Assembly (NCBI RefSeq): GCF_988242995.1
Contig: NZ_OZ547043.1
Reading direction: 5' to 3' (one strand)
Length of the DNA: 64,000 nucleotides
Every line of letters begins with the position of its first letter. Position 1 is the stretch's first letter. Shown here piece by piece: positions 22,558 to 63,975 of the stretch. The position numbers and the translations under genes were made by a program. Under the pieces are notes generated by a model. That model did not search any database. It was not told where the DNA came from and worked only from the letters and a program-made list of their open reading frames with translations.

Positions 22558-22677
22558 ATGCCTGGCAGTTCCCTACTCTCGCATGGGGAGACCCCACACT
22601 ACCATCGGCGCTACGGCGTTTCACTTCTGAGTTCGGCATGGGGTCAGGTGGGACCACCGCGCTAAGGCCGCCAGGCA
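22558..22677 (-). rRNA. rrfG: 5S ribosomal RNA
   Basis: 120 nt; reverse complement matches the E. coli 5S sequence (TGCCTGGCGGCC...CTGCCAGGCAT). Confidence 0.97.
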
Positions 22678-22770
22678 AATTCTGTTTTATTAACCCGCTT
22701 GTCGCCGGTTAATTTAATCTGTATCAGGCTGAAAATCTTCTCTCATCCGCCAAAACATCTTCGGCGTTGT

Positions 22771-25675
<2,905 letters not shown>

Positions 25676-25868
25676 TCACAACCCGAAGATGTTTCTTTCG
25701 ATTCATCATCGTGTTGCGAAAATTTGAGAGACTCACGAACAACTTTCGTTGTTCAGTGTTTCAATTTTCAGCTTGATCCAGATTTTTAAAGAGCAAATAT
25801 CTCAAACATCACCCGAAGATGAGTTTTGAGATATTAAGGCAGGTGACTTTCACTCACAAACCAGCAAG

Positions 25869-25944
25869 TGGCGTCCCCTAGGGGATTCGAACCCCTGTTA
25901 CCGCCGTGAAAGGGCGGTGTCCTGGGCCTCTAGACGAAGGGGAC
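25869..25944 (-). tRNA. gltW: tRNA-Glu (UUC) in the 16S-23S spacer
   Basis: 76 nt; reverse complement is GTCCCCTTCGTCTAGAGGCCCAGGACACCGCCCTTTCACGGCGGTAACAGGGGTTCGAATCCCCTAGGGGACGCCA. Confidence 0.96.
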
Positions 25945-26038
25945 GTGTCAGTCTGCTTCGCAAGACGCCTTGCTTTTCACTTTCTATCAGACAATCTGTG
26001 TGAGCACTTCAAAGAACGCTTCTTTAAGGTAAGGAGGT

Positions 26039-27571
<1,533 letters not shown>

Positions 27572-52006: not shown

Positions 52007-52369
52007 GGGGCTGATTCTGGATTCGACGGGATTTGCGAAACCCAAGGTGCATGCCGAGGGGCGGTTGGCCTCGTAAAAAGCCGCAAAAAATAGTCGCAAA
52101 CGACGAAAACTACGCTTTAGCAGCTTAATAACCTGCTTAGAGCCCTCTCTCCCTAGCCTCCGCTCTTAGGACGGGGATCAAGAGAGGTCAAACCCAAAAG
52201 AGATCGCGTGGAAGCCCTGCCTGGGGTTGAAGCGTTAAAACTTAATCAGGCTAGTTTGTTAGTGGCGTGTCCGTCCGCAGCTGGCAAGCGAATGTAAAGA
52301 CTGACTAAGCATGTAGTACCGAGGATGTAGGAATTTCGGACGCGGGTTCAACTCCCGCCAGCTCCACCA
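52007..52369 (+). ncRNA. ssrA: tmRNA (SsrA / 10Sa RNA)
   Basis: 363 nt from GGGGCTGATTCTGGATTCGACGGG to ...CCCGCCAGCTCCACCA; contains the tag reading frame region; tRNA-like 3' end. Confidence 0.96.
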
Positions 52370-52483: not shown

Positions 52484-52531
52484 GGTATACGTTTAGGTAT
52501 ACGGTAAGATGTATACCTAAATGCGTATACC
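52484..52531. promoter_or_regulatory. Repeat cluster at the int 5' end (GTATAC-containing repeats with an 11-bp inverted repeat); candidate Int arm-type sites or int operator
   Basis: TTTAGGTATAC-N8-GTATACCTAAA perfect inverted repeat (about 52492-52521) abutting the ATG at 52521, plus two more GGTATAC/CGTATACC copies. Confidence 0.45.
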
Positions 52532-53753
52532 AATTCATGAAGGAACGGCCAAAGTGGCAAGAACGACACGTCCCCTGACCAACACTGAAGTTCTGCGCGC
52601 TAAAGCGTTAGAAAAGGATCTAACGTTGCATGATGGCGATGGCCTTTTTCTGCTCGTTAAAACGAACGGTAAGAAATTATGGCGTTTCCGCTACCAAAAG
52701 CCAGTAACAAAACAGCGGACCATGATTAGTTTAGGAACCTTCCCTGCACTATCCTTGGCTGAAATCAGAAATGTGCGAGCTAAGTATCTTTCCTTGTTAG
52801 CCAAGGGGATCGATCCACAAACACACAATGAACAAGTCACACAACAACAACAAATTGCAGTAGAAAGTATTTTTTCAAACGTTGCTAAAAATTGGTTTGC
52901 CATTAAACGCAATAGCGTTACACCTGATTATGCAAAGGATATATGGCGATCCTTAGAGAAGGACATTTTCCCTGCTATCGGAGAGATTCCTGTTCAGGAA
53001 ATAAAAGCACGTATATTAATTGAAGCCCTAGAACCAATTAAGGCCCGCGGTGCACTCGAGACTGTTCGTCGTTTGGTGCAACGTATTAACGAAATTATGA
53101 TCTACGCTGTCAATACCGGATTAATTGAGGCTAATCCTGCGTCAGGTATTGGCATGGCTTTTGATAAACCCAAAAAGCAAAATTTGCCAACGCTGCGGCC
53201 AGAAGAATTACCTAAACTGATGCATTCTCTAGTAATGTCAAACCTGTCTATTCCTACTCGTTGTCTGATCGAATGGCAACTACTGACACTCGTTCGCCCT
53301 TCAGAAGCCTCTGGCGCCCGCTGGGATGAGATCGATTTAGAATCCAAACTTTGGAGAATTCCTGCTGAAAGGATGAAAGCAAAGCGCGAACATATAGTTC
53401 CTTTATCATCTCAAGCTTTAATTATTCTTGAAGTAATGAAACCCATAAGTGCTCATCGTGAACATATATTTCCTAGCAGGAATAACCCTCAAGAACCGAT
53501 GAATAGCCAAACAGCAAATGCAGCATTAAAACGCATAGGGTACGGAGGAAAGTTAGTTGCACATGGACTCCGTTCTATTGCCAGCACTGCATTAAATGAA
53601 GCCGAATTTAATTCTGACATTATTGAATCAGCTCTTGCACATGTTGATAAAAATGAGGTGAGAAGAGCATATAACCGCTCCACTTATCTTGATAAACGTA
53701 AAGAGATGATGGCTTGGTGGGGAAATTTTATATATAAAAATAATTCATTATAA
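52521..53753 (+). CDS. int: Tyrosine recombinase (phage integrase, P4/CP4-57 family)
   Basis: 410-aa ORF with C-terminal catalytic region (HGLRSIAST...LAHVD...RRAYNRSTYLDKR); real start may be the downstream GTG (about 52551, reading VARTTRPLT). Confidence 0.88.
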   Translation: MRIPIHEGTAKVARTTRPLTNTEVLRAKALEKDLTLHDGDGLFLLVKTNGKKLWRFRYQKPVTKQRTMISLGTFPALSLAEIRNVRAKYLSLLAKGIDPQTHNEQVTQQQQIAVESIFSNVAKNWFAIKRNSVTPDYAKDIWRSLEKDIFPAIGEIPVQEIKARILIEALEPIKARGALETVRRLVQRINEIMIYAVNTGLIEANPASGIGMAFDKPKKQNLPTLRPEELPKLMHSLVMSNLSIPTRCLIEWQLLTLVRPSEASGARWDEIDLESKLWRIPAERMKAKREHIVPLSSQALIILEVMKPISAHREHIFPSRNNPQEPMNSQTANAALKRIGYGGKLVAHGLRSIASTALNEAEFNSDIIESALAHVDKNEVRRAYNRSTYLDKRKEMMAWWGNFIYKNNSL

Positions 53754-53764
53754 AAGGTATTACA

Positions 53765-54799
53765 ATGAATATTGATTCTATAAAACTTCATTTACAAAAT
53801 TTTTTCACAAATAATCCAACTGTTCTTATCGGTTCTGGCCTCTCTCTCGGTGAGGGGATTCCAGGTATGAAAACATTGGGAGAACATCTTAATACAACTA
53901 TCCCCAAATTAGTAAGCGGGGATCTTATAAGAGAATGGGGTATCATAAGTTCCAAACTAAATAATGGTATGGGACTTGAAGATGCCATGGCATTTCTTAA
54001 AGATGAAAGTGAACTTATCCCATTAATTATTCAGCACACCGCAGATCTTATTTTAAAGCATGAAAATACTGTAATATGCTCTGTAATCAATGGAGAAAAA
54101 AATCTAGCATTTACATCTTTATTGAATCACTTAACTTTTAATCAAAATGAATTGATAATTATAACTCCAAACTATGATAGACTAATTGAAATAGCATGTG
54201 AAATTGCTGGTCTAGAAATTTCAACAGGATTTATCAATAGTTATCATTGTATAAATAATCCTGAAGTTGAGTTAGATAAATTCAAAATCACCCACTCTAT
54301 CAAAACCACACGAGGTAAATCTACAGTTCAAATTAGAACTAAAAAACACGTTAAAATATTTAAACCTCATGGTAGTCTTGATTGGTTCAAGGCTGACGAT
54401 AAAATTATCAGGACCAGCTTTCAAAATAAACATAAAAGATTAATTATTACACCAGGTACAAGTAAATTCAGAGCTGGATATCAGCAGCCTTTTGATTGGC
54501 ATAGAGAAAAAGCAAACCATTATATCAAAAGAGCAAAATCACTATTAATTATTGGCTATGGGTTTAATGATGAGCAGTTAGAAGTACATTTGAAATCAAA
54601 AATACGTGAAAAAATACCTGTTTTATTAATGACATATGAATTGACATCAAACGCTCAAAAAATATGTGATGATAATCCTTCTATAACATATGTTATTGCA
54701 GAAGGAAACAATTCCATCGTTTGTATCGATGGCATTAAATATAAAATCGAAAAGAATATTTGGTCTTTAAATGAGTTTGTTAAAGAGGTACTTAAATAA
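53765..54799 (+). CDS. SIR2-like NAD+-binding protein (predicted NADase effector); cargo gene 1
   Basis: 344-aa ORF. Gly-rich NAD-binding loop VLIGSGLSLGEG, TPNYD motif (catalytic Asn codon 54170-54172), KPHGS motif (His codon 54367-54369) and second Rossmann motif IIGYGFND. Low GC; stop overlaps next gene's start (TAATG). Confidence 0.8.
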   Translation: MNIDSIKLHLQNFFTNNPTVLIGSGLSLGEGIPGMKTLGEHLNTTIPKLVSGDLIREWGIISSKLNNGMGLEDAMAFLKDESELIPLIIQHTADLILKHENTVICSVINGEKNLAFTSLLNHLTFNQNELIIITPNYDRLIEIACEIAGLEISTGFINSYHCINNPEVELDKFKITHSIKTTRGKSTVQIRTKKHVKIFKPHGSLDWFKADDKIIRTSFQNKHKRLIITPGTSKFRAGYQQPFDWHREKANHYIKRAKSLLIIGYGFNDEQLEVHLKSKIREKIPVLLMTYELTSNAQKICDDNPSITYVIAEGNNSIVCIDGIKYKIEKNIWSLNEFVKEVLK

Positions 54800-56583
54800 T
54801 GGAATATTACGTCATTAACACTGATGAAACATGCTTTATCGGACGAATCGCAAATGTTGATACCGATCGTGCTATTATCATTTCAGAGTCTCCAGAGATC
54901 ATACAAGAACTAACCGTTTTTGACTTGGTTGCTATTGAAGGCAATACCCCCACAGAGTTTCTTGTTGGTATCATTGAAAAAGTAAAACGCTCTATTGGAG
55001 AAATACAAACTATTGATACTGAAGAAAATATTGAAGATGACAGTGAAAAAGATTTCGATAATATCTTCCAAACTTATTCTATCGATCATGATATTCTTCA
55101 AGTAGCTCTTATCGGCACTTTCTGGGAGGTTTACGGGGATAGAAGGAAAATTTTTAAAAGAGGAGCACAATATTTTCCAAAAGTTGAAAAACAAGCATTT
55201 CTTATAAAAAAAGACAGTCTTGAGAAATTAATGTCGGCAGTCGACAATGATACTCCTGATGAGCTAAAACTCATACTAGGCAACTATGGAAATACCAATT
55301 CACGAGCAGTTGCAAATGGGGATAAATTATTTCAGAGACATGCTGCCCTATTGGGGAGTACTGGTTCAGGTAAAAGTTGGACAGTTGCGTCATTACTAGA
55401 ACAAGCCTCAAAATTAAAATACAACAATATTGTACTTTATGATCTTCATGGTGAATACAAAACTTTATCTGATACACATAATAAATCGAACCGCCCGAGC
55501 ATAGCCGATTATTTTAAAATTGCAAGCCCAGGAAATATCGACGATGTAAATAGTATTTATGTACCTCATTGGTTATTAAACAAAGAAGAAATGCTATCAC
55601 TGTTGTTAGATAGAAGCGATAGCAATGCACCTAATCAGGCAGCAAGATTTAGCTACCACGTGAGAGAGCTAAAAAAAGAATACATCACACACAACAGATT
55701 AATACACTTAGAAGATTGTTTGACTGTTGATGCTCCAATACCCTACTCTATCGAGGATCTTATTAGCAGACTGCACGATGATGATCAAGGTATGAAAAAA
55801 GGTACTAATAATAAAGAAATAAAAGGTGATTGGAATGGAAAACTAACAAGATTCATAAGCAGGTTAAGAACAAAAGTAGACGACAAGAGGAACTGTTTTC
55901 TATTCTCAAATAAACCAGAACACAACCAATATGATTGGTTGGAGAAATACGCTTGTAAAATTTTAAAATCAGATAGCACAGATCATGGCATTAAAATAAT
56001 TGATTTTTCTGAAGTTCCTTCAGATATTATGCCTATTGTTATTGGTGTATTGACCAGATTTTTATACAACGTCCAATTTTGGAGATGTGAGACCGAACGA
56101 ACCCCTATAGCATTCGTTTGTGACGAAGCTCATATTTATTTACCCGCTAAGGATACCACTGAGGCTGAAACAAAAATATCCTTATCAATATTCGAGAAAA
56201 TTGCTAAAGAAGGCAGAAAGTACGGAGTATCTTTATTAGTCGTCAGCCAAAGACCTTCTGATGTTAGCAGAACAATACTAAGTCAATGTAATAACATAAT
56301 TTCTCTCAGACTAAGTAATTATAGAGATCAACAGGTAGTTAGTCGGTTAATGCCTGATTCATTGAGTTCATTAACATCCATACTACCAATTCTTGATACT
56401 GGGGAAGCAATAGTTCTTGGCGACTCTGTTCTATTACCAGCTAGAATAAAATTGAATCCACCAACACTCAAGCCCGATAGCGCAACCAGAGCTTTTTGGA
56501 ATGAGTGGGGGGCAATTGAAGCAAAAGAAATCTCTATAGCAAATGCTGTTGAATCACTCAGGAGACAATCTCGTAATCGCTAA
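54799..56583 (+). CDS. HerA/FtsK-type ATPase; cargo gene 2
   Basis: 594-aa ORF. Walker A GSTGSGKS (Lys codon 55372-55374), Walker B FVCDEAH (56122-56133), and KEGRKYGVSLLVVSQRP arginine-finger region typical of HerA. Translationally coupled to the SIR2-like gene. Confidence 0.8.
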   Translation: MEYYVINTDETCFIGRIANVDTDRAIIISESPEIIQELTVFDLVAIEGNTPTEFLVGIIEKVKRSIGEIQTIDTEENIEDDSEKDFDNIFQTYSIDHDILQVALIGTFWEVYGDRRKIFKRGAQYFPKVEKQAFLIKKDSLEKLMSAVDNDTPDELKLILGNYGNTNSRAVANGDKLFQRHAALLGSTGSGKSWTVASLLEQASKLKYNNIVLYDLHGEYKTLSDTHNKSNRPSIADYFKIASPGNIDDVNSIYVPHWLLNKEEMLSLLLDRSDSNAPNQAARFSYHVRELKKEYITHNRLIHLEDCLTVDAPIPYSIEDLISRLHDDDQGMKKGTNNKEIKGDWNGKLTRFISRLRTKVDDKRNCFLFSNKPEHNQYDWLEKYACKILKSDSTDHGIKIIDFSEVPSDIMPIVIGVLTRFLYNVQFWRCETERTPIAFVCDEAHIYLPAKDTTEAETKISLSIFEKIAKEGRKYGVSLLVVSQRPSDVSRTILSQCNNIISLRLSNYRDQQVVSRLMPDSLSSLTSILPILDTGEAIVLGDSVLLPARIKLNPPTLKPDSATRAFWNEWGAIEAKEISIANAVESLRRQSRNR

Positions 56584-56608
56584 TAAAAATATTATCTAGC
56601 AACGCGCA

Positions 56609-56627
56609 GTGCTTTCCCCGCCTCGCC
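56609..56627 (-). other. P2/P4-type cos site (19-nt cohesive end sequence)
   Basis: Window reads GTGCTTTCCCCGCCTCGCC, the exact reverse complement of the P2/P4 cohesive end GGCGAGGCGGGGAAAGCAC as recalled; flanked by GC-rich dyads. Confidence 0.8.
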
Positions 56628-56791
56628 CGCCCGCTTTGCGGGGCGGTTTCAGTGCAGTTGCACTGACACGCTCAGGCCGCGCCGGGAATGGCGCGGTCTG
56701 CAGAAAATGAGGCAGGAAAACGCATGCAAAGCCATGCACCTTATCGATGCATGGCTTTTTTCAGTAAAAACGGGCGGATTTTCGGGGAATT

Positions 56792-57364
56792 TTACACAGA
56801 CTGATGTGATGCCAGTTGCGCACTTTTACGCGAAAAAATCATGTTCTGCGCAGGAGTGAATTTTTCACGGCTGTCATCCACCGAAGCCGCGTCAGGCCTG
56901 AATCCGATGGTCGTTAAAATGTCGCTATCCTGTGCGGAATAATTAATTTTTTCACCCTTCGCAAGCCAGGACTGGAGGGCTTCACGCAGGGCATCTGTGG
57001 CACGCTGTATGGCACAGTTTCGGGCAATGGCCGTCAGCTCACTGTAGCCCATCAGCTCCGGTGCCAGTGCCGCCGCCAGTGCTGTGCCGTGCTGCTGCAT
57101 AAAATCATTCAGCCGGTCGCGGATGCTGATGTGCTGAACGGCTTCATGCGAACGAATATAACGACCGGCGGCCTGATTCACCTGCCATTTTCTGACTTCG
57201 ATAATATTGCGTAATTCGTCCAGGCGACTGACGTTTCTGCCTTCTCCTGACAGAAGCCGCAGGTATTCCTGTTCGGCCGCTGCCAGCTCATTTTTGCGTT
57301 GCAGCCATGCTGCTTTGTTATTCTGACAGGTGTCAAAGGCCTGCTGTAAGGCTGTGCTTTCCAT
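56792..57364 (-). CDS. psu: P4 Psu-like protein (polarity suppression / capsid decoration)
   Basis: 190-aa ORF, the same length as P4 Psu, in the conserved psu-delta-sid order next to cos. Confidence 0.75.
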   Translation of the reverse strand: MESTALQQAFDTCQNNKAAWLQRKNELAAAEQEYLRLLSGEGRNVSRLDELRNIIEVRKWQVNQAAGRYIRSHEAVQHISIRDRLNDFMQQHGTALAAALAPELMGYSELTAIARNCAIQRATDALREALQSWLAKGEKINYSAQDSDILTTIGFRPDAASVDDSREKFTPAQNMIFSRKSAQLASHQSV

Positions 57365-57437
57365 CGTTATCTCTTTCTCATCATGCTGAAGAATAAAAAT
57401 ACGGTGTGCGGCGACGGCCGGTGTTAACCGGCAGCCC

Positions 57438-57938
57438 TCATTCCAGACGCAGCGAATATGATTGTGTTTTTAACCGTACTGGCGGCAGTTCCTGTTTTTC
57501 ATGCAGGCGTTCTGCCAGTTCGTCCGGCGTGACCGGGCGGACAATGAAACGGTTGATGGTCTGAAGCGTTTTAAACACCAGACCACAGCCCGGATCCGTG
57601 CACACATAAAAACGCTCGGTGACTTCCTGAGACAGACGCCGCGATGTTCTTGACAGTGCAAGGCCTTTACATCTCCGACAACAATATCCGGTAACAAGCA
57701 TTCTTTTCGGCCGTTTCATACTGCCGGAGGCTGACGTCAGTGAATCGCGGTATCTCTGTTTGCCTGAAATGTATTCCATTCCTGAATCTTTACAGTCAGA
57801 GAAAAAGCTTTCACTCGCTTCAAATGTCGCAGAGCAATAAATATTCCGGCACTGTGCAATCATTATCTTGGTGCCATCGTCCATGAAATGTGCGCGACGG
57901 GTGTGAGCAACATGTCCACACGACGGGCAGTAAATCAT
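57438..57938 (-). CDS. delta: P4 Delta-like late-gene activator (tandem Ogr-type zinc fingers)
   Basis: 166-aa ORF with two C-x2-C...C-x4-C zinc-finger units (MIYCPSCGHVAH...CRNIYC and YCCRRCKG...CTDPGC). Confidence 0.85.
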   Translation of the reverse strand: MIYCPSCGHVAHTRRAHFMDDGTKIMIAQCRNIYCSATFEASESFFSDCKDSGMEYISGKQRYRDSLTSASGSMKRPKRMLVTGYCCRRCKGLALSRTSRRLSQEVTERFYVCTDPGCGLVFKTLQTINRFIVRPVTPDELAERLHEKQELPPVRLKTQSYSLRLE

Positions 57939-58669
57939 GACAGCAGCCCTCTGGCCTTAAGCTCTGCTCCCTGCTGGTCTATTTTGTCCTGCCACACCTT
58001 GCGCTGTGCCGGTGTGCCTGCCACCTCATAATCCATGTGCGGGAGTGTTGCCGCTGACAGTCCGGCCAGCCGGAGAACCGGCTCGCCGGTGAGGCTGATT
58101 TGCATCTGTTTTATTTTCTGTTCCAGCGATGATTTCACCTGCTGCATGACAGCCTTTTCCGGCGCGACGTAGCCCTGATGGCCGGTGGTGTTGGCGAGCG
58201 GATTTTCCTGTACCAGGATGCTCAGATGCATTGCCCGGACAAGCGCCTCACAGGTTTCATTCAGGGCGTGTTCCAGCTCATGCTCTGCATACAGACTCAG
58301 CAGGTGATGATGTGCCTTCCGGTAGGCGGTGGCCGTGCTGTCACACGCCCCTTTCAGGCGTTCACATTCAAAATTCAGCACCACGGCCAGATTGTCATAT
58401 TCCTGTACCAGCTCCCGGCGTGCCACGCGCTCAATGTGGCGCTGTTTCAGCTCATCGCTCAGGACACCACCGGCTGCACGAAAGGCCGTGCGCCAGTCGT
58501 CAGCGTCGTTTCCGTCGGCCTGCGTCAGCGCATTTTTTTCCTGCTCTGCCCGTTCAATGGCCGTGATGGTCTCATCCATCAGGCGGGCGTTCTCAAGATG
58601 AGCGGCTCTGGCCTTTTCCAGTTGTGCCAGCGCGGGTTGCAGATATTCAGGGATGGTGTTGTCAGACAT
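57935..58669 (-). CDS. sid: P4 Sid-like external scaffold (capsid size determination) protein
   Basis: ORF track gives 266 aa; start trimmed to MSDNTIPEYLQPALAQLEK (244 aa, the P4 Sid length) with RBS; coiled-coil-rich. Confidence 0.75.
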   Translation of the reverse strand: MSDNTIPEYLQPALAQLEKARAAHLENARLMDETITAIERAEQEKNALTQADGNDADDWRTAFRAAGGVLSDELKQRHIERVARRELVQEYDNLAVVLNFECERLKGACDSTATAYRKAHHHLLSLYAEHELEHALNETCEALVRAMHLSILVQENPLANTTGHQGYVAPEKAVMQQVKSSLEQKIKQMQISLTGEPVLRLAGLSAATLPHMDYEVAGTPAQRKVWQDKIDQQGAELKARGLLS

Positions 58670-58703
58670 TTTCCGGCTCCTCGTCACTTCAGGTTGAGAA
58701 AAT

Positions 58704-58759
58704 TGTGACGTACACCGGACAACAACACGACGCATTGCAGATGTGCCAGCCCTGACACA
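58704..58759. promoter_or_regulatory. Two TGT-N12-ACA dyads; candidate Delta/Ogr activator sites for the divergent late promoters (Psid / PLL)
   Basis: TGTgacgtacaccggACA (58704-58721) and TGTgccagccctgacACA (58742-58759) match the P2/P4 late-promoter activator element TGT-N12-ACA. Confidence 0.55.
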
Positions 58760-58838
58760 GGAGACTCATCCTCAGACCGGCAAGCCAGGAAAAGGTCGCA
58801 GGAAAAACCGGCTTACTGTTTGTTTTTTTATATTTTAC

Positions 58839-58942
58839 TGTTCACCTCTGTTCACCTTAAGAAAAAAGATAAGTAATACAGTAAGTTAAAGGATGAACAA
58901 TCGCAGTAATGACTGTTCACCGTCTGTTCACCACTGTTCACC
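58839..58942. repeat. Candidate P4-type replication origin (ori) iteron cluster
   Basis: Five direct copies of TGTTCACC (58839, 58849, 58914, 58925, 58935) plus a degenerate inverted copy; about 4.8 kb from the crr repeats, as in P4. Confidence 0.7.
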
Positions 58943-59221
58943 CGCTCATGGACTTTTTGTGCTGTTTACTACTGTTTGTTTTTATTAATTCGCCGGGAAT
59001 GAATAAGAAGAAACGATTTGTATTTCACTATAAAAATTACGAATTGCTTTAAGTGGCTTTAAATGACTTTAAGTGGAGATGAACAAAAAATACACAAGCA
59101 TTGTAAGGCTGCCGGAACAAATCCCCCCTGTTGCGTCTGCCGAAAATATTCACAAAATAAAGCGCTACCCGAAGCCGGACGGACTTATCCGGTGCTGTAT
59201 GGACATTAACGAGGTAGCCCG

Positions 59222-59488
59222 ATGCAATCTGTTTTTTCTTCCCCGTCTCCCGCCCCAGTGACGCCACTGATGCCGCTGCCGGACATCACGCAGGAGCGTT
59301 TTTTACGTCTGCCGGAAGTGATGCACCTGTGCGGCCTGTCACGCTCGACCATCTATGAACTTATCCGTAAGGGGGAATTTCCGCCGCAGGTGAGTCTTGG
59401 CGGTAAAAATGTGGCCTGGCTGCACTCTGAAGTCACCGCATGGATGGCCGGGCGCATTGCCGGACGCAAACGGGGGTACGACGCATGA
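59222..59488 (+). CDS. vis: AlpA/Vis-family helix-turn-helix regulator
   Basis: 88-aa ORF with AlpA-type HTH ([27 protein letters not shown]), the length of P4 Vis. Confidence 0.75.
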
Positions 59489-60084
59489 TGATGCCCGCTC
59501 TGCAAAAAGTCCCTTTTTCTGGCTTGCCTTTTTCCGGCATTTGCGGATATAGTTTTTCCGCTGCCGCAAAATCGGCAGCCGGGCGTGGAAACCCGAGTAT
59601 GTTATCGGCGACATATGACGCGCCATGCGTCTTTTTTTGTGTCGCAATCAACGCCACAGAGCGCCAGATTATGGTGTGGTGTGTGGTCAGTCGAGCAAAT
59701 GGCACTCCGTGCATTCTGCCCGCGTCCGCTCATTATACCGCAGAGTCAATGGTAGCTCAGGCGGGGCAGCCTCCGCGCTGGCCGGTTTCCGATAACGCCG
59801 GTATTTCCACCCCCGTCTGGGCTATCGCCATCGAGCGTGGAAACTCCGGCGATAGCGTCATTTACGCTGTTATCGGAGGTTGCCTTATGGCTACGACCCT
59901 TATCCCCTCACACCCTGAATTTGTCTTTGTGTTTGCGGCTGTCCGTCGCGCAGACCGTCATCCCCGTATCTGTATGCTTCGCACCGTCGCCGGTGATGAA
60001 CGCAGCGCCCGCCGTTCCCTTGTCCGTGACTATGTGCTCTCCCTTGCTGCCCGTCTGCCGGTGGTGGAGGTGTCCCGTGCGTAA
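59485..60084 (+). CDS. Hypothetical protein, P4 orf199-like (coding status uncertain)
   Basis: 214-aa ORF trimmed to an internal Met to give 199 aa; Ala/Pro-rich and GC-rich, so it could instead overlie the RNA-based immunity locus. Confidence 0.35.
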
Positions 60085-60364
60085 TAAAAAAGCCCCTCAG
60101 ACCGTCTCAGCACGTCATGACGCCCGTGAACACCTCAGCATTGAGGCTTACCATAAGCTCAACCGCGCCAGCGCCGTATCCCAGTTTGTTGGGGGTGATT
60201 TGATTCACCGTGAACTCTCCGGCCTGCATCAGCTCTACATTCCGCATATTTTCAGCTACCTGAATGAAGATATTGATTTTGTGCTGAATGAGCTGAAAGC
60301 CAAAGGCCTGTGCCGCGATTTTCTCGCCCAGCAGAAAGACCGGGGAGACAGGACGCATGTTTGA
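60077..60364 (+). CDS. Hypothetical protein, P4 epsilon-like (possible helper-prophage derepressor)
   Basis: About 95 codons from a putative GTG start within ORF 59837-60364 ([25 protein letters not shown]...); size and position match P4 epsilon. Assignment is by analogy only. Confidence 0.4.
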
Positions 60365-60812
60365 TTTTCCCCAGCCCGGTGAGATTTACCGTTCTGCCGG
60401 TTTTCCCGATGTGGCCGTGGTCGGCATTCTGGAAGACGGTATTCCGTGGGAAATGCCGTACCGCTGCCCGGACATTGTCTGGAACCCGTACCGCCGTAAA
60501 TTCAGTATCCTTGTGCGTATCCTCGCTGACGGGCGCACCACAGACATCCCGCTGGGGCGTTTTCTGCGGGAATTTACCTGTGACCGTCCTGACCTGTTTA
60601 AACGCAGCCCCGTAAACCGGCATGCGGTACTGAAAGAAATGGCCGGAGACCCGGAATTACAGAAATGGCGGGAGAAATATCTGGATATTTACCCGCAGGA
60701 CCCTGTTCCGGTCAGCCGGGCGGCACCGGTGGCGCGGGAATGGCGGGAAATTCCCCGCACGGAGCCTGACCCGGAAACCACCCCGGATAACAGTTACCGC
60801 AATTATCTGTAA
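60357..60812 (+). CDS. Hypothetical protein, P4 orf151-like
   Basis: 151-aa ORF whose start overlaps the previous ORF's stop; position upstream of alpha as in P4. Confidence 0.6.
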   Translation: MFDFPQPGEIYRSAGFPDVAVVGILEDGIPWEMPYRCPDIVWNPYRRKFSILVRILADGRTTDIPLGRFLREFTCDRPDLFKRSPVNRHAVLKEMAGDPELQKWREKYLDIYPQDPVPVSRAAPVAREWREIPRTEPDPETTPDNSYRNYL

Positions 60813-60947
60813 TTAAAAAACGACACCCGAAAAATTAAATGTGCGTATTCGCGCAGGGATACGCACGTCTTCAGGAGACGCAGATATGCCTTATCAGTTA
60901 ATGCAACCGGCACGGAATGCAGTCATCTGTCACAGGGAGGAAAACAA

Positions 60948-61268
60948 ATGAAAACACCCTTACCGCCCGTCTTACGCGCTGCCCTTTACCGTCGCGCTGT
61001 CGCCTGTGCCTGGCTGACCGTGTGCGAACGTCAGCACCGCTACCCGCATCTCACCCTTGAGTCACTGGAGGCGGCCATCGCCGCTGAGCTGGAAGGCTTT
61101 TATCTGCGCCAGCACGGTGAGGAAAAAGGGCGTCAGATAGCCTGTGCCCTGCTGGAAGATTTAATGGAATCCGGCCCCCTGAAGGCCGCGCCGTCGCTGT
61201 CCTTTCTCGGGCTGGTTGTGATGGATGAACTCTGTGCCCGTCACATAAAAGCGCCGGTACTGCACTGA
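60948..61268 (+). CDS. Hypothetical protein, P4 orf106-like
   Basis: 106-aa ORF directly upstream of the alpha gene. Confidence 0.55.
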
Positions 61269-61282
61269 AGGAGAACAACACC

Positions 61283-63616
61283 ATGAAAATGAACGTAACC
61301 GCCACCGTCAGCCATGCGCTCGGCCACTGGCCGCGTATTCTCCCGGCGCTGGGGATTCAGGTGCTGAAGAACCATCATCAGCCCTGTCCGGTCTGTGGCG
61401 GGAGTGACCGCTTCCGTTTTGATGACAGGGAGGGGCGCGGCACCTGGTACTGCAATCAGTGTGGTGCCGGTGACGGCCTGAAACTGGTTGAAAAGGTGTT
61501 TGGTGTCTCCCCGTCCGACGCGGCCGCAAAGGTGGCTGCCGTGACCGGCAGTCTGCCCCCGGCTGACCCGGCAGTGACGGCTGCCGCCGTTGCTGAAACA
61601 GACGCTGCCCGGAAGAACGCCGCCGCACTGGTACAAACCCTGATGGCAAAAACCCGTCCCGGAACCGGTAACGCCTACCTGACCCGCAAGGGCTTTCCCG
61701 GCCGGGAATGCCGGATGCTGACCGGCACACACAGAGCCGGTGGCGTGAGCTGGCGCGCCGGTGACCTTGTGGTGCCACTGTATGACGACAGCGGCGAACT
61801 GGTTAACCTTCAGTTAATCAGTGCTGACGGCCGTAAGCGCACCCTGAAAGGCGGACAGGTCAGGGGCACCTGTCACACCCTTGAAGGACAGAATCAGGCC
61901 GGAAAACGTCTGTGGATAGCGGAGGGATACGCGACCGCACTTACCGTGCATCACCTGACCGGTGAAACGGTGATGGTGGCGCTTTCTTCCGTGAATCTCC
62001 TTTCTCTGGCCAGCCTTGCCCGGCAGAAGCATCCGGCCTGTCAGATTGTCCTTGCTGCTGACCGTGACCTCAGCGGTGACGGCCAGAAAAAAGCCGCCGC
62101 AGCCGCAGATGCGTGTGAAGGTGTTGTTGCCCTGCCGCCGGTCTTCGGTGACTGGAATGATGCCTTCACGCAGTACGGCGGGGAAGCCACCCGTAAGGCC
62201 ATTTATGATGCCATCCGGCCACCGGCTGAAAGCCCGTTCGACACCATGAGCGAAGCGGAGTTTTCCGCCATGAGTACCAGCGAAAAGGCCATGCGTATCT
62301 ATGAGCATTACGGCGAGGCGCTCGCGGTCGATGCCAACGGCCAGCTTCTGTCCCGCTATGAAAATGGTGTCTGGAAGGTGCTGCCGCCACAGGACTTTGC
62401 CCGGGATGTGGCCGGGCTGTTTCAGCGTCTGCGAGCGCCGTTCTCCTCCGGGAAGGTGGCCTCCGTGGTGGACACCCTGAAGCTGATTATTCCGCAGCAG
62501 GAAGCCCCCTCCCGCCGCCTGATTGGCTTTCGTAACGGCGTGCTCGACACGCAGAACGGCACGTTCCACCCGCACAGTCCGTCACACTGGATGCGCACCC
62601 TGTGCGATGTGGATTTCACCCCGCCGGTGGACGGTGAAACGCTGGAAACCCACGCCCCCGCCTTCTGGCGCTGGCTTGACCGTGCCGCCGGTGGCCGTGC
62701 GGAAAAACGCGACGTGATTCTGGCTGCACTGTTTATGGTGCTGGCAAACCGCTACGACTGGCAGCTCTTTCTGGAGGTGACCGGTCCCGGCGGCAGCGGC
62801 AAAAGTATCATGGCCGAAATCGCCACCCTGCTGGCCGGGGAGGATAACGCCACGTCGGCCACCATCGAGACGCTGGAATCCCCGCGTGAACGTGCCGCGT
62901 TAACTGGCTTCTCACTGATACGCCTGCCGGATCAGGAAAAATGGAGCGGCGACGGTGCCGGACTCAAGGCCATCACCGGCGGCGATGCGGTGTCCGTTGA
63001 CCCGAAATACCGGGATGCGTACTCCACGCACATCCCGGCGGTGATTCTGGCCGTGAACAATAACCCGATGCGCTTCACCGACCGCAGCGGCGGCGTGTCA
63101 CGCCGGCGGGTGATTATTCACTTCCCGGAACAGATAGCCCCGCAGGAGCGCGACCCGCAGCTTAAGGACAAAATCACCCGCGAGCTGGCGGTCATCGTGC
63201 GTCACCTGATGCAGAAGTTCAGCGACCCGATGCTCGCCCGGTCACTGCTTCAGTCCCAGCAGAACTCAGACGAGGCACTGAACATCAAACGGGATGCCGA
63301 CCCGACGTTTGATTTTATCGGCTATCTGGAAACCCTGCCGCAGACCAGCGGCATGTATATGGGGAACGCCAGTATCATCCCGCGTAATTACCGTAAATAC
63401 CTCTATCACGCCTATCTGGCCTACATGGAGGCAAACGGCTACCGGAATGTACTCAGTCTGAAAATGTTCGGACTGGGGCTGCCGGTGATGCTGAAAGAAT
63501 ACGGGCTGAATTACGAGAAGCGCCATACCAAACAGGGGATACAGACCAACCTGACGCTGAAAGAAGAAAGCTACGGCGACTGGCTGCCAAAATGTGACGA
63601 CCCTGCAACAGCCTGA
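61283..63616 (+). CDS. alpha: P4 alpha-type replication protein (zinc-finger primase - TOPRIM - helicase - ori-binding)
   Basis: 777-aa ORF (P4 alpha length). N-terminal zinc finger CPVCGGSDRFRF...WYCNQCG, TOPRIM-like acidic patch (AADRD), helicase Walker A (TGPGGSGKS). Confidence 0.88.
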   Translation: MKMNVTATVSHALGHWPRILPALGIQVLKNHHQPCPVCGGSDRFRFDDREGRGTWYCNQCGAGDGLKLVEKVFGVSPSDAAAKVAAVTGSLPPADPAVTAAAVAETDAARKNAAALVQTLMAKTRPGTGNAYLTRKGFPGRECRMLTGTHRAGGVSWRAGDLVVPLYDDSGELVNLQLISADGRKRTLKGGQVRGTCHTLEGQNQAGKRLWIAEGYATALTVHHLTGETVMVALSSVNLLSLASLARQKHPACQIVLAADRDLSGDGQKKAAAAADACEGVVALPPVFGDWNDAFTQYGGEATRKAIYDAIRPPAESPFDTMSEAEFSAMSTSEKAMRIYEHYGEALAVDANGQLLSRYENGVWKVLPPQDFARDVAGLFQRLRAPFSSGKVASVVDTLKLIIPQQEAPSRRLIGFRNGVLDTQNGTFHPHSPSHWMRTLCDVDFTPPVDGETLETHAPAFWRWLDRAAGGRAEKRDVILAALFMVLANRYDWQLFLEVTGPGGSGKSIMAEIATLLAGEDNATSATIETLESPRERAALTGFSLIRLPDQEKWSGDGAGLKAITGGDAVSVDPKYRDAYSTHIPAVILAVNNNPMRFTDRSGGVSRRRVIIHFPEQIAPQERDPQLKDKITRELAVIVRHLMQKFSDPMLARSLLQSQQNSDEALNIKRDADPTFDFIGYLETLPQTSGMYMGNASIIPRNYRKYLYHAYLAYMEANGYRNVLSLKMFGLGLPVMLKEYGLNYEKRHTKQGIQTNLTLKEESYGDWLPKCDDPATA

Positions 63617-63649
63617 CCCACCTGACCGGCATCTGCCGGTCTTTTTTTA

Positions 63650-63975
63650 TCCCTGAATCCCCCGAAGGTGAACAATCCAGTGTTCACCCTTCACCGTATA
63701 TTCACCCGTTATCACACTGAAATTAAAAGAGAAAAACGAAAGGTGAACAGTGTGAACAATCAAATCAAAAAAAACTTTTTTTCTTCCTGTGTGATTTTCA
63801 GCACGGGAAATTAATCCCCTGCACAAGTCACACCGGCAGAATGCCGGAGGTGAAGAATCGAATGTTCACCCTTCACCCATTATTCACCACCTATCACTCT
63901 GAAATAAAAGGAGAAAACAGAAAGGTGAACAGTGTGAACAGTTCTTTCGAAAAAAAATTTTTTTCCTGTACGATA
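63650..63975. repeat. crr-like cis replication region: two direct repeats of about 130 bp, period about 185 bp, each carrying TGTTCACC/GGTGAACA iterons
   Basis: Repeat 1 (about 63660-63790) and repeat 2 (about 63845-63970) align nearly base for base (ggtgaacaatccagtgttcaccc... versus ggtgaagaatcgaatgttcaccc...); located just 3' of alpha. Confidence 0.75.

Follow-up and report, generated by a model that had tools for sequence, protein, structure and literature searches.

Does the interval between the vis and orf151 genes of a P4-like satellite prophage encode proteins, or does it hide an immunity locus made of RNA? An earlier note, made from the sequence alone, raised this question for positions 59440-60364 of the window (i.e. 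the whole 64,000-nt stretch of DNA analysed here) and suspected that a non-coding immunity locus of the P4 type might be concealed there. Our results make it highly probable that this interval constitutes the immunity module of such a prophage, with a mechanism that we take over from P4 by homology. The RNA-based P4 system itself is already known and curated in Rfam; the window copy is a natural specificity variant of it.

Setting of the interval in a P4-like satellite prophage

The region from 56.6 to 64 kb of the window is a P4-like satellite prophage adjoining the tmRNA gene ssrA (52007-52369). When 59000-60900 was compared with phage genomes by blastn, along the lines of the alignment to the P4 immunity region that the earlier note had proposed, phage-plasmid P4 proved 96.7% identical along the entire query, with the whole module present. 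The gene order is identical to that of the P4 records, from which annotation was transferred by alignment. The satellite carries an integrase of its own (52521-53753) as well as a low-GC cargo of SIR2 and HerA (53765-56583). The P4 annotation maps psu (56792-57364), delta (57438-57938) and sid (57935-58735) to the minus strand, the ori repeats to a site 5' of vis, and vis itself (i.e. orf88, encoding an AlpA-type excisionase/regulator; Pfam Phage_AlpA, 74.2 bits) to 59222-59488 on the plus strand. It further places an old 'cI/ash' ORF of 137 aa at 59668-60084, orf151 at 60357-60812 on the plus strand as the gene that follows in the left operon (no match in Pfam or NCBIfam), orf106 at 60948-61268 and alpha (777 aa) at 61283-63616. 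Some match to 59480-59920 occurs in 1038 of 5426 E. coli genomes, with up to 4 copies per genome, and 28 E. coli genomes contain a match of at least 99% identity; in E. coli GPEC1446 the identity over this segment is 99.8%.

Both long ORFs listed in the earlier note, 59440-60084 (214 aa) and 59837-60364 (175 aa), are present exactly as described, and several overlapping frames are indeed open, with further ORFs of 40-120 aa on both strands. The compositional peculiarities ascribed to them fared less well. The supposedly GC-rich interval has a GC content of 56.2%, equal to the satellite average (56.2% for 56600-63650) and only modestly above the E. coli host part (49.9%). Richness in Ala and Pro is barely supported (21.0% in the 214-aa ORF and 16.6% in the 175-aa ORF versus 16-18% in vis, orf151, alpha and sid), and low complexity is not apparent, with Shannon entropies of 4.03-4.07 bits versus 4.13 in alpha and lowest 20-aa windows of 2.7-2.8 bits versus 2.46 in alpha.

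RNA elements and their covariation among relatives

Three Rfam families (i.e. isrK, c4-a1b1 and C4) match above their gathering thresholds, all confined to the flagged interval, which is the only locus of this kind in the window. A mir-4520 match at 63777-63844 was rejected as noise (20 bits against a gathering threshold of 90, E = 0.84).

The sole sigma-70-like site on the plus strand within 58700-60500 is the promoter PLE (59524-59553; TTGCCT, 18-nt spacer, TATAGT), whose -10 hexamer falls on the '-10 consensus' annotated in the P4 record X02534 (2367-2372). By analogy with P4, PLE would drive the immunity transcript constitutively.

The seqA or IsrK-like leader RNA (59560-59637, plus strand) is matched end to end by isrK, terminator included (74.7 bits against a gathering threshold of 50), and c4-a1b1 covers 59547-59599 (51.5 bits against 46.7). 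It contains two hairpins (59560-59579 and 59580-59595), the second of which exposes the b-box GTGGAAA (59585-59591) in its loop, then the a-box GTTATCGG (59601-59608) and, according to a terminator scan, a terminator-like hairpin (59617-59631) followed by seven T's (59632-59638).

The CI RNA gene, a member of the C4 antisense RNA family that contains seqB, lies at 59745-59832 on the plus strand and matches C4 (RF01695) over its full length (1-87) with 70.4 bits against a gathering threshold of 45. Its minimum free energy (MFE) fold equals the C4 family consensus (-42.3 kcal/mol, z = -3.45) and comprises (i) a closing stem of 17 bp (59750-59766 with 59811-59827) followed by CCA (59828-59830); (ii) hairpin 1 (59767-59780); (iii) hairpin 2 (59781-59802), whose loop (59786-59797) carries the a' sequence (CCGATAAC, 59789-59796); and (iv) the single-stranded b' sequence TTTCCAC (59804-59810). 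A G-to-C change at 59776, private to the window (1 of 62 distinct sequences), breaks the innermost pair of hairpin 1, which still folds with 4 bp. The architecture as a whole (17-bp stem, CCA, two small hairpins and a single strand) matches that of the hairpin-type RNase P substrates to which the P4 CI RNA and the P1 C4 RNA belong (PMC5499578). In P4-like prophages, the IsrK-like RNA corresponds to seqA and C4 to the CI RNA (Barquist et al., PMC3632133).

The seqC target (59832-59880, plus strand) was delimited by repeats and covariation. It holds a second b-box GTGGAAA (59837-59843) in the loop of a hairpin (59821-59829 with 59848-59856) and a second a-box GTTATCGG (59869-59876), and the 12 nt at its positions 59868-59879 form consecutive standard pairs with the entire CI loop 59786-59797. 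The a-box region covers the Shine-Dalgarno sequence GGAGG (59875-59879) of the kil gene, 7 nt ahead of the kil ATG at 59887. The a-box pairs with the CI loop and the b-box with TTTCCAC, so that both boxes match perfectly at all three sites in the window. A repeat search recovered these short complementary pairs independently, as the earlier note had anticipated: seqA and seqC have in common the direct repeats CG(G/A)GCGTGGAAAC and TGTTATCGG (D1/D2), each complementary to the CI RNA, and inverted repeats were found at seqC (I1/I3/I4) and for seqB against seqA/seqC (I1-I3 and I5).

The complementary pairs also covary. An IMG/VR scan with Vis returned 80 loci, all of which carry the immunity module 3' of vis; together with the window and P4 they make 82 sequences, 69 of them distinct. 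Pairs were counted in 62 distinct relatives (alignment A1) for specified structures, and these counts were used in place of a strict three-site exact-match count, which was set aside as inflated (one gap column, G-U pairs). Overall, 97-98% of the cells are paired versus 35-45% after a shift of the partners by 1-3 columns; none of 500 shuffles reached the covariation score or the paired percentage, and 29 pairs are changed on both sides. The pairing of CI with the b-boxes is nearly invariant (99.8% of cells for seqA and 100% for seqC, with six of seven pairs changed on both sides in each). Its pairing with the seqA a-box reaches 97-100% in eight core pairs and 90.7% over nine, seven of which are changed on both sides with up to four pair types, and its pairing with the seqC a-box reaches 87.3% (7 of 12 pairs changed on both sides). 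The CI long stem (99.9% paired, 8/17 changed on both sides) and the seqC hairpin (98.6%, 4/9) behave likewise. The b-box agrees at seqA, seqB and seqC in 68 of the 69 distinct sequences. In the core of the a-box, standard pairing reaches 97-100%, and the exceptions are a few recombinant or decayed copies. The suspicion of a hidden P4-type RNA immunity locus is thus borne out by the three Rfam families and by boxes that are both complementary and covarying.

Covariation of the boxes is equally compatible with trans action and with cis pairing. With seqA, seqB and seqC on one transcript, the three could pair with one another while the PLE transcript is being made and so govern termination, a separate trans RNA being irrelevant; the full leader (59560-59900) indeed has an MFE fold far more stable than those of shuffles (z = -4.74). 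The CI segment, however, is self-contained and very stable, with a stem and CCA like those of RNase P substrates (PMC5499578), and the box alleles reassort as units, as expected of specificity determinants. In P4, moreover, the processed CI RNA confers immunity in trans. PMC4825925, for its part, speaks only of an antisense action on seqA/seqC. We therefore regard a purely cis-acting attenuator as decidedly improbable and prefer a module with a trans-acting CI RNA. The long-range pairing predicted in the full-leader fold is uninformative on cis versus trans action.

Reading frames overlapping the RNA elements

The RNA elements are embedded in an open frame. The eta ORF (59485-60084, plus strand) comprises 197-199 codons from an ATG triple at 59485-59493, the first ATG of which overlaps the vis TGA stop (59486-59488) as ATGA, and it spans seqA, the CI RNA gene and seqC. 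The 214-aa ORF of the earlier note is eta plus 15 non-conserved upstream codons. Its ATG at 59440 was rejected as the eta start, as the frame is closed 4-8 codons 5' of 59493 in 37 of 78 distinct relatives. Forti et al. in 1999 are said to have described the same arrangement for eta, i.e. a start at the ATG triple overlapping the vis stop and a last 65 codons that are kil. From the ATG triple to the kil ATG, no stop interrupts the eta frame in 68 of the 69 distinct sequences, and 67 have it in phase with kil; neither alternative frame is open over this stretch in any of the 69, the mean numbers of stops being 4.5 and 6.1. Indels of eta in alignment A1 are either multiples of three or mutually compensating.

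In eta, this open frame goes together with little sign of amino-acid constraint. GC content is flat over the codon positions of its N-terminal 134 codons (0.54/0.57/0.56), and the excess of variation at third positions is absent from the eta-only part in 78 distinct relatives. Codon-position entropies in four of its five segments are 0.45/0.47/0.33, 0.40/0.39/0.35, 0.65/0.65/0.61 and 0.46/0.49/0.43; the 54-nt seqC segment alone rises towards position 3 (0.47/0.62/0.77). Nested in the same frame, kil (59887-60084, plus strand, 65 codons) is an Icd-like gene with a match to NCBIfam phage_ICD_like (NF033153; 72.1 bits on eta residues 146-193) and a clear coding signature in the distinct relatives (n = 78; 0.18/0.16/0.66), as has vis (0.26/0.19/0.75, n = 78). 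The codon-periodicity check suggested in the earlier note therefore gives a divided answer, with periodicity absent from the eta-only part but clear in kil. By analogy with P4, translation of the PLE transcript would begin with kil. These entropies come from a 1.7-kb alignment of the relatives (MAFFT, fast setting) in which distant loci are poorly aligned beyond epsilon and the epsilon and orf151 values are rough.

The second long ORF is resolved by its protein domain. Pfam PF25738 (Derepression; 170 bits) covers residues 82-175 only of the 175-aa ORF (59837-60364), and codons 1-80 (59837-60076) are out of phase with kil, the real coding frame there; the real gene is therefore epsilon from the GTG at 60077. 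These first 80 codons are not coding, and reading the whole ORF as a longer epsilon was rejected on the grounds of the partial domain match, the out-of-phase extension and the Shine-Dalgarno sequence and GTG at 60066-60079. The epsilon gene, encoding the helper-derepression protein (60077-60364, plus strand, 95 codons, GTG start, Shine-Dalgarno GGAGG at 60066-60070), thus forms the C-terminal 95 codons of that ORF, in the position annotated in P4, and does not lie downstream of orf151. Eta's flat codon-position GC and the out-of-phase N-terminus of the 175-aa ORF underlie the impression of low complexity mentioned above.

What does not hold is the opposition of RNA-coding to protein-coding in this interval. 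The RNA elements are present, but they lie inside eta, a frame kept open in 68/69 sequences, and kil (NF033153) and epsilon (PF25738) are bona fide genes with family matches. An interval that encodes nothing but an Ash/Icd-like 199-aa protein and a derepression protein, with the protein once called cI as its immunity factor, would agree with current annotation. RefSeq/PGAP gives CDSs only in the interval, including a 199-aa CDS at eta, and no ncRNA, and in the P4 records the 137-aa ORF that overlies the RNA gene still goes by 'cI gene product / transcriptional repressor'; annotation therefore misses the locus. Protein homology of the long ORFs, which the earlier note had counted as evidence against an RNA locus, also exists in part: Pfam Phage_ASH scores 80.9 bits on eta residues 22-146. 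This match refutes nothing, as it spans the very stretch that encodes seqA and the CI RNA, and the Pfam Ash family largely mirrors conservation at the RNA level. Against a protein-only locus stand the missing codon-position signature of the eta-only part, the conservation of RNA helices with boxes that covary three ways in up to four pair types, the three Rfam families and the identification of the processed CI RNA as the immunity factor (PMC4825925, PMC5499578). Its probability appears negligible, and we continue with the RNA-based immunity module.

Why would a frame with little amino-acid constraint stay open? According to a published idea, eta upstream of kil matters for the transit of ribosomes, which prevents termination, and not for its amino-acid sequence. 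An open and amino-acid-unconstrained eta upstream of kil fits this idea. The locus is a clean natural case of compensatory evolution at three sites and of DNA put to two uses, with the frame held open for ribosome transit and the nucleotides constrained as RNA. Within kil and eta, the stretch 59840-60060 of the plus strand is rich in C and poor in G (C/G of 1.3-1.6 in 78-nt windows). Its composition makes it a candidate for the region where Rho loads to act at an immunity-controlled terminator (timm in P4); P4 timm is overlapped by kil/eta, in agreement with this position.

The module might also be a relic, with recognizable RNA elements in a cryptic prophage copy and a defunct immunity circuit. 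The private change at 59776 in CI hairpin 1 points in this direction, and some relatives are clearly damaged: seqA is mismatched to its own CI RNA in L008, and the eta frame is lost in L021 and L064. The window copy nevertheless has both boxes perfect at all three sites, and neither damage nor a departure from the P4 lengths is seen in PLE, the kil Shine-Dalgarno sequence and ATG, eta, epsilon, orf151, orf106 or alpha (777 aa). Furthermore, 59480-59920 is matched at 99% identity or more in 28 E. coli genomes, and the mutated hairpin retains its 4 bp. Decay thus seems unlikely, and we consider the module as an intact one below.

Specificity, proposed mechanism and closest known systems

Differences from P4 are concentrated in the immunity module, with 34 events in 59585-59886 (∼11%) versus ∼2% over the whole 7.4 kb. 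They accumulate in seqA, seqB and seqC, where they offset one another. Six base pairs of the two boxes differ from P4, each compensated at all three sites: in both targets the b-box GTGAGAA of P4 is replaced by GTGGAAA and the a-box TTCACAGG by GTTATCGG, while in CI TTCTCAC is replaced by TTTCCAC and the loop sequence CCTGTGAA by CCGATAAC. Three small indels near seqC cancel out and leave eta in frame. Cognate duplexes have predicted energies of -20 to -25 kcal/mol; the window CI reaches -8.4 and -5.4 kcal/mol with the P4 targets, and the P4 CI -11.2 and -6.9 kcal/mol with the window targets, i.e. the cross-duplexes are ∼12-15 kcal/mol weaker. The specificity boxes of the window copy are therefore not those of P4. 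Because the differences from P4 are compensating and the two boxes covary at all three sites, the window copy is probably heteroimmune to P4, i.e. of a different immunity specificity, as far as sequence comparison can tell.

Among the 82 sequences (69 distinct), there are 5 b-box alleles and ∼13 a-box alleles in 26 combinations, and the combination of the window (GTTATCGG + GTGGAAA) recurs in three relatives (L004, L005 and L049). We see about an even chance that P4-like satellites carry a combinatorial RNA immunity code of two boxes. If so, the combination in the window would mean heteroimmunity to P4 and to most relatives, and free reassortment of the boxes would suggest frequency-dependent selection for new immunity types, which would let several satellites share one cell. 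A catalogue of the alleles could then serve to predict mutually exclusive P4-like satellites. The main survey of P4-like diversity (PMC8628076) makes no mention of the immunity RNA, and a catalogue of immunity types is therefore a new angle, if a modest one: a systematic map of immunity groups may be unpublished, and the underlying principle (P4 versus phiR73) is known.

In P4, processing of an untranslated transcript yields the CI RNA, which is antisense to seqA and seqC and whose pairing with them causes premature termination that keeps the replication genes off (Hershko-Shalev et al., PMC4825925). On this precedent we infer PLE transcription, processing by RNase P and PNPase, trans action, Rho termination within kil and read-through along eta for the window copy. 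PLE would constitutively make a leader with the seqA/IsrK-like RNA at its 5' end and the CI precursor (59745-59832) further along. The precursor, a putative RNase P substrate with its stem and CCA, would be processed by RNase P and PNPase into a small stable RNA, whose mature length we take to be roughly 70 nt. Its a' loop (59786-59797) would pair with seqA at 59601-59608 and seqC at 59868-59879, and its b' sequence (59804-59810) with seqA at 59585-59591 and seqC at 59837-59843. Pairing at seqC would hide the kil Shine-Dalgarno sequence and leave kil untranslated and its C-rich RNA naked, so that Rho could halt transcription ahead of epsilon, orf151, orf106 and the alpha primase gene and the satellite would stay quiescent. 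An incoming satellite of the same specificity would be shut off in trans. Transcripts from an upstream regulated promoter (PLL) would be read through because ribosomes would translate eta along them without a break, with ATGA as the coupling to vis.

Of the known systems, P4 is the closest, with 96.7% nucleotide identity and the same order vis-PLE-seqA-cI-seqC-kil/eta-epsilon-orf151-orf106-alpha. The promoter hexamers, RNA folds, overlap of seqC with the kil ribosome-binding site and ATG triple of eta over the vis stop are also the same. In contrast, both boxes differ as given above, and the window element sits at ssrA with another integrase and the SIR2-HerA cargo. Similarity to more distant systems is restricted to parts of the module. 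The seqA leader matches isrK as in the IsrK-STnc1160-orf45-anrP locus of Salmonella Gifsy-1; there, however, the prophage is lambdoid, IsrK serves as an sRNA/mRNA that activates the gene of an antiterminator inhibitor, and the downstream genes are others. In linear plasmid prophages of the N15/phiKO2 type, a small processed RNA controls an antirepressor operon. N15 is listed among phages with structurally similar systems (PMC3632133), and phiKO2 and several Klebsiella phages contain isrK-like and C4-like segments ∼75% identical to those of the window, but the RNA segments alone are shared, and the surrounding genes and the controlled function (an antirepressor) differ.

The immI locus of P1/P7 (c4, a1b1, a2b2, icd and ant) resembles the window locus in logic. 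Both belong to the Rfam families C4 and c4-a1b1, and both use two boxes (a' and b'), with an upstream target and a second one that overlaps the ribosome-binding site of a gene of the Icd type (here kil, by its match to NCBIfam phage_ICD_like). The P4 CI RNA and the P1 C4 RNA are both RNase P substrates (PMC5499578). By contrast, P1 controls icd and the antirepressor gene ant, whereas the window locus would control kil and then epsilon and the alpha primase gene. No nucleotide similarity to P1 was detectable in the phage-genome search with 59000-60900, and in place of ant the genes downstream of kil are epsilon (PF25738), orf151, a DUF5375 gene and the alpha primase gene. The window locus thus works like immI, yet is not a member of it. 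A parallel for its probable change of specificity is the P4-like retronphage phiR73 (GenBank M64113), which Sabbattini et al. in 1996 reportedly found to be heteroimmune to P4 through differences in the CI RNA/seqB. The principle is the same in both, i.e. a P4-type module whose specificity is set by complementary boxes.

Coding frame and RNA conservation in the PF10554 region

The Pfam match to the 'Ash protein family' (PF10554) covers 59548-59925 of the window and corresponds to residues 22-146 of eta, the plus-strand ORF (59485-60084) that spans the IsrK-like leader RNA seqA, the gene for the antisense CI RNA (59745-59832) and seqC, the downstream target at the kil RBS. The matched part of eta has no codon-position signature and encodes both seqA and the CI RNA. 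What unites this 'protein family' seems to be mostly conservation at the RNA level. A 137-aa ORF overlapping the PF10554 region is still labelled 'transcriptional repressor' in the P4 RefSeq record.

Within the conserved reading frame of eta, a canonical intrinsic-terminator-like hairpin and the seven T's after it occupy 59617-59638; the eta peptide encoded there reads ...DAPCVFFCV... Any transcript that starts at the upstream promoter has to extend past this hairpin. In place of the spacer that separates the seqA terminator from the CI RNA (59646-59726; columns 92-172 in our alignment of distinct relatives, including the window and P4), distant relatives carry an unrelated sequence that is 39-45 nt shorter. 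The length difference is a multiple of three every time, so the eta frame is kept without amino-acid conservation.

Variation and sharing of the immunity RNAs

Hairpin 1 of the CI RNA carries a private G-to-C substitution at 59776 that removes its innermost base pair; the hairpin still folds, as a 4-bp stem with a loop of 6 nt. The window alone (1/62 distinct sequences) is unpaired at this position. Among the relatives' loci from IMG/VR, the specificity boxes of seqA in L008 (IMGVR_UViG_2698536560_000011, 2334-2679; GTGAGAA and TCTAACGG) are mismatched to the CI RNA of the same locus (GTGGAAA and TTCACAGG); its seqC boxes do match that CI RNA. This locus is apparently a recombinant, with an exchange between seqA and cI. 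Two further loci (L021 and L029) have degenerate a-boxes, and the eta frame is lost in L021 and L064.

Segments about 73-78% identical to 59537-59642 and 59749-59856 are present in phiKO2 and other Klebsiella/Enterobacter phages. In N15-like linear plasmid prophages, the likeness is limited to the seqA/IsrK-like and C4-like parts, which suggests that the RNA module transfers among unrelated mobile elements.

Surrounding genes and comparison with P4

The host part of the window contains a complete rRNA operon (16S, tRNA-Glu, 23S and 5S; 22560-27571), together with rncO, the Phe leader and RyfD as further E. coli chromosomal RNA elements; all are ordinary. Within the satellite, the mechanical sid ORF (57935-58735, minus strand) has 266 aa, whereas P4 sid is annotated at 244 aa; the additional 22 codons start at an in-frame upstream ATG and probably do not belong to the gene.

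A two-gene cargo of low GC content (about 30-36%; 53765-56583), placed between the satellite integrase and psu, encodes a SIR2 protein (344 aa; PADLOC SIR2, 414 bits) and a HerA ATPase (594 aa; 696 bits). It is a SIR2-HerA anti-phage system and occupies the already known P4 defence hotspot. The tmRNA gene ssrA (52007-52369) is followed directly downstream by the satellite, which has its own tyrosine integrase (52521-53753). By contrast, P4 integrates at leuX; the satellite combines a P4-like core with an integration module different from that of P4.
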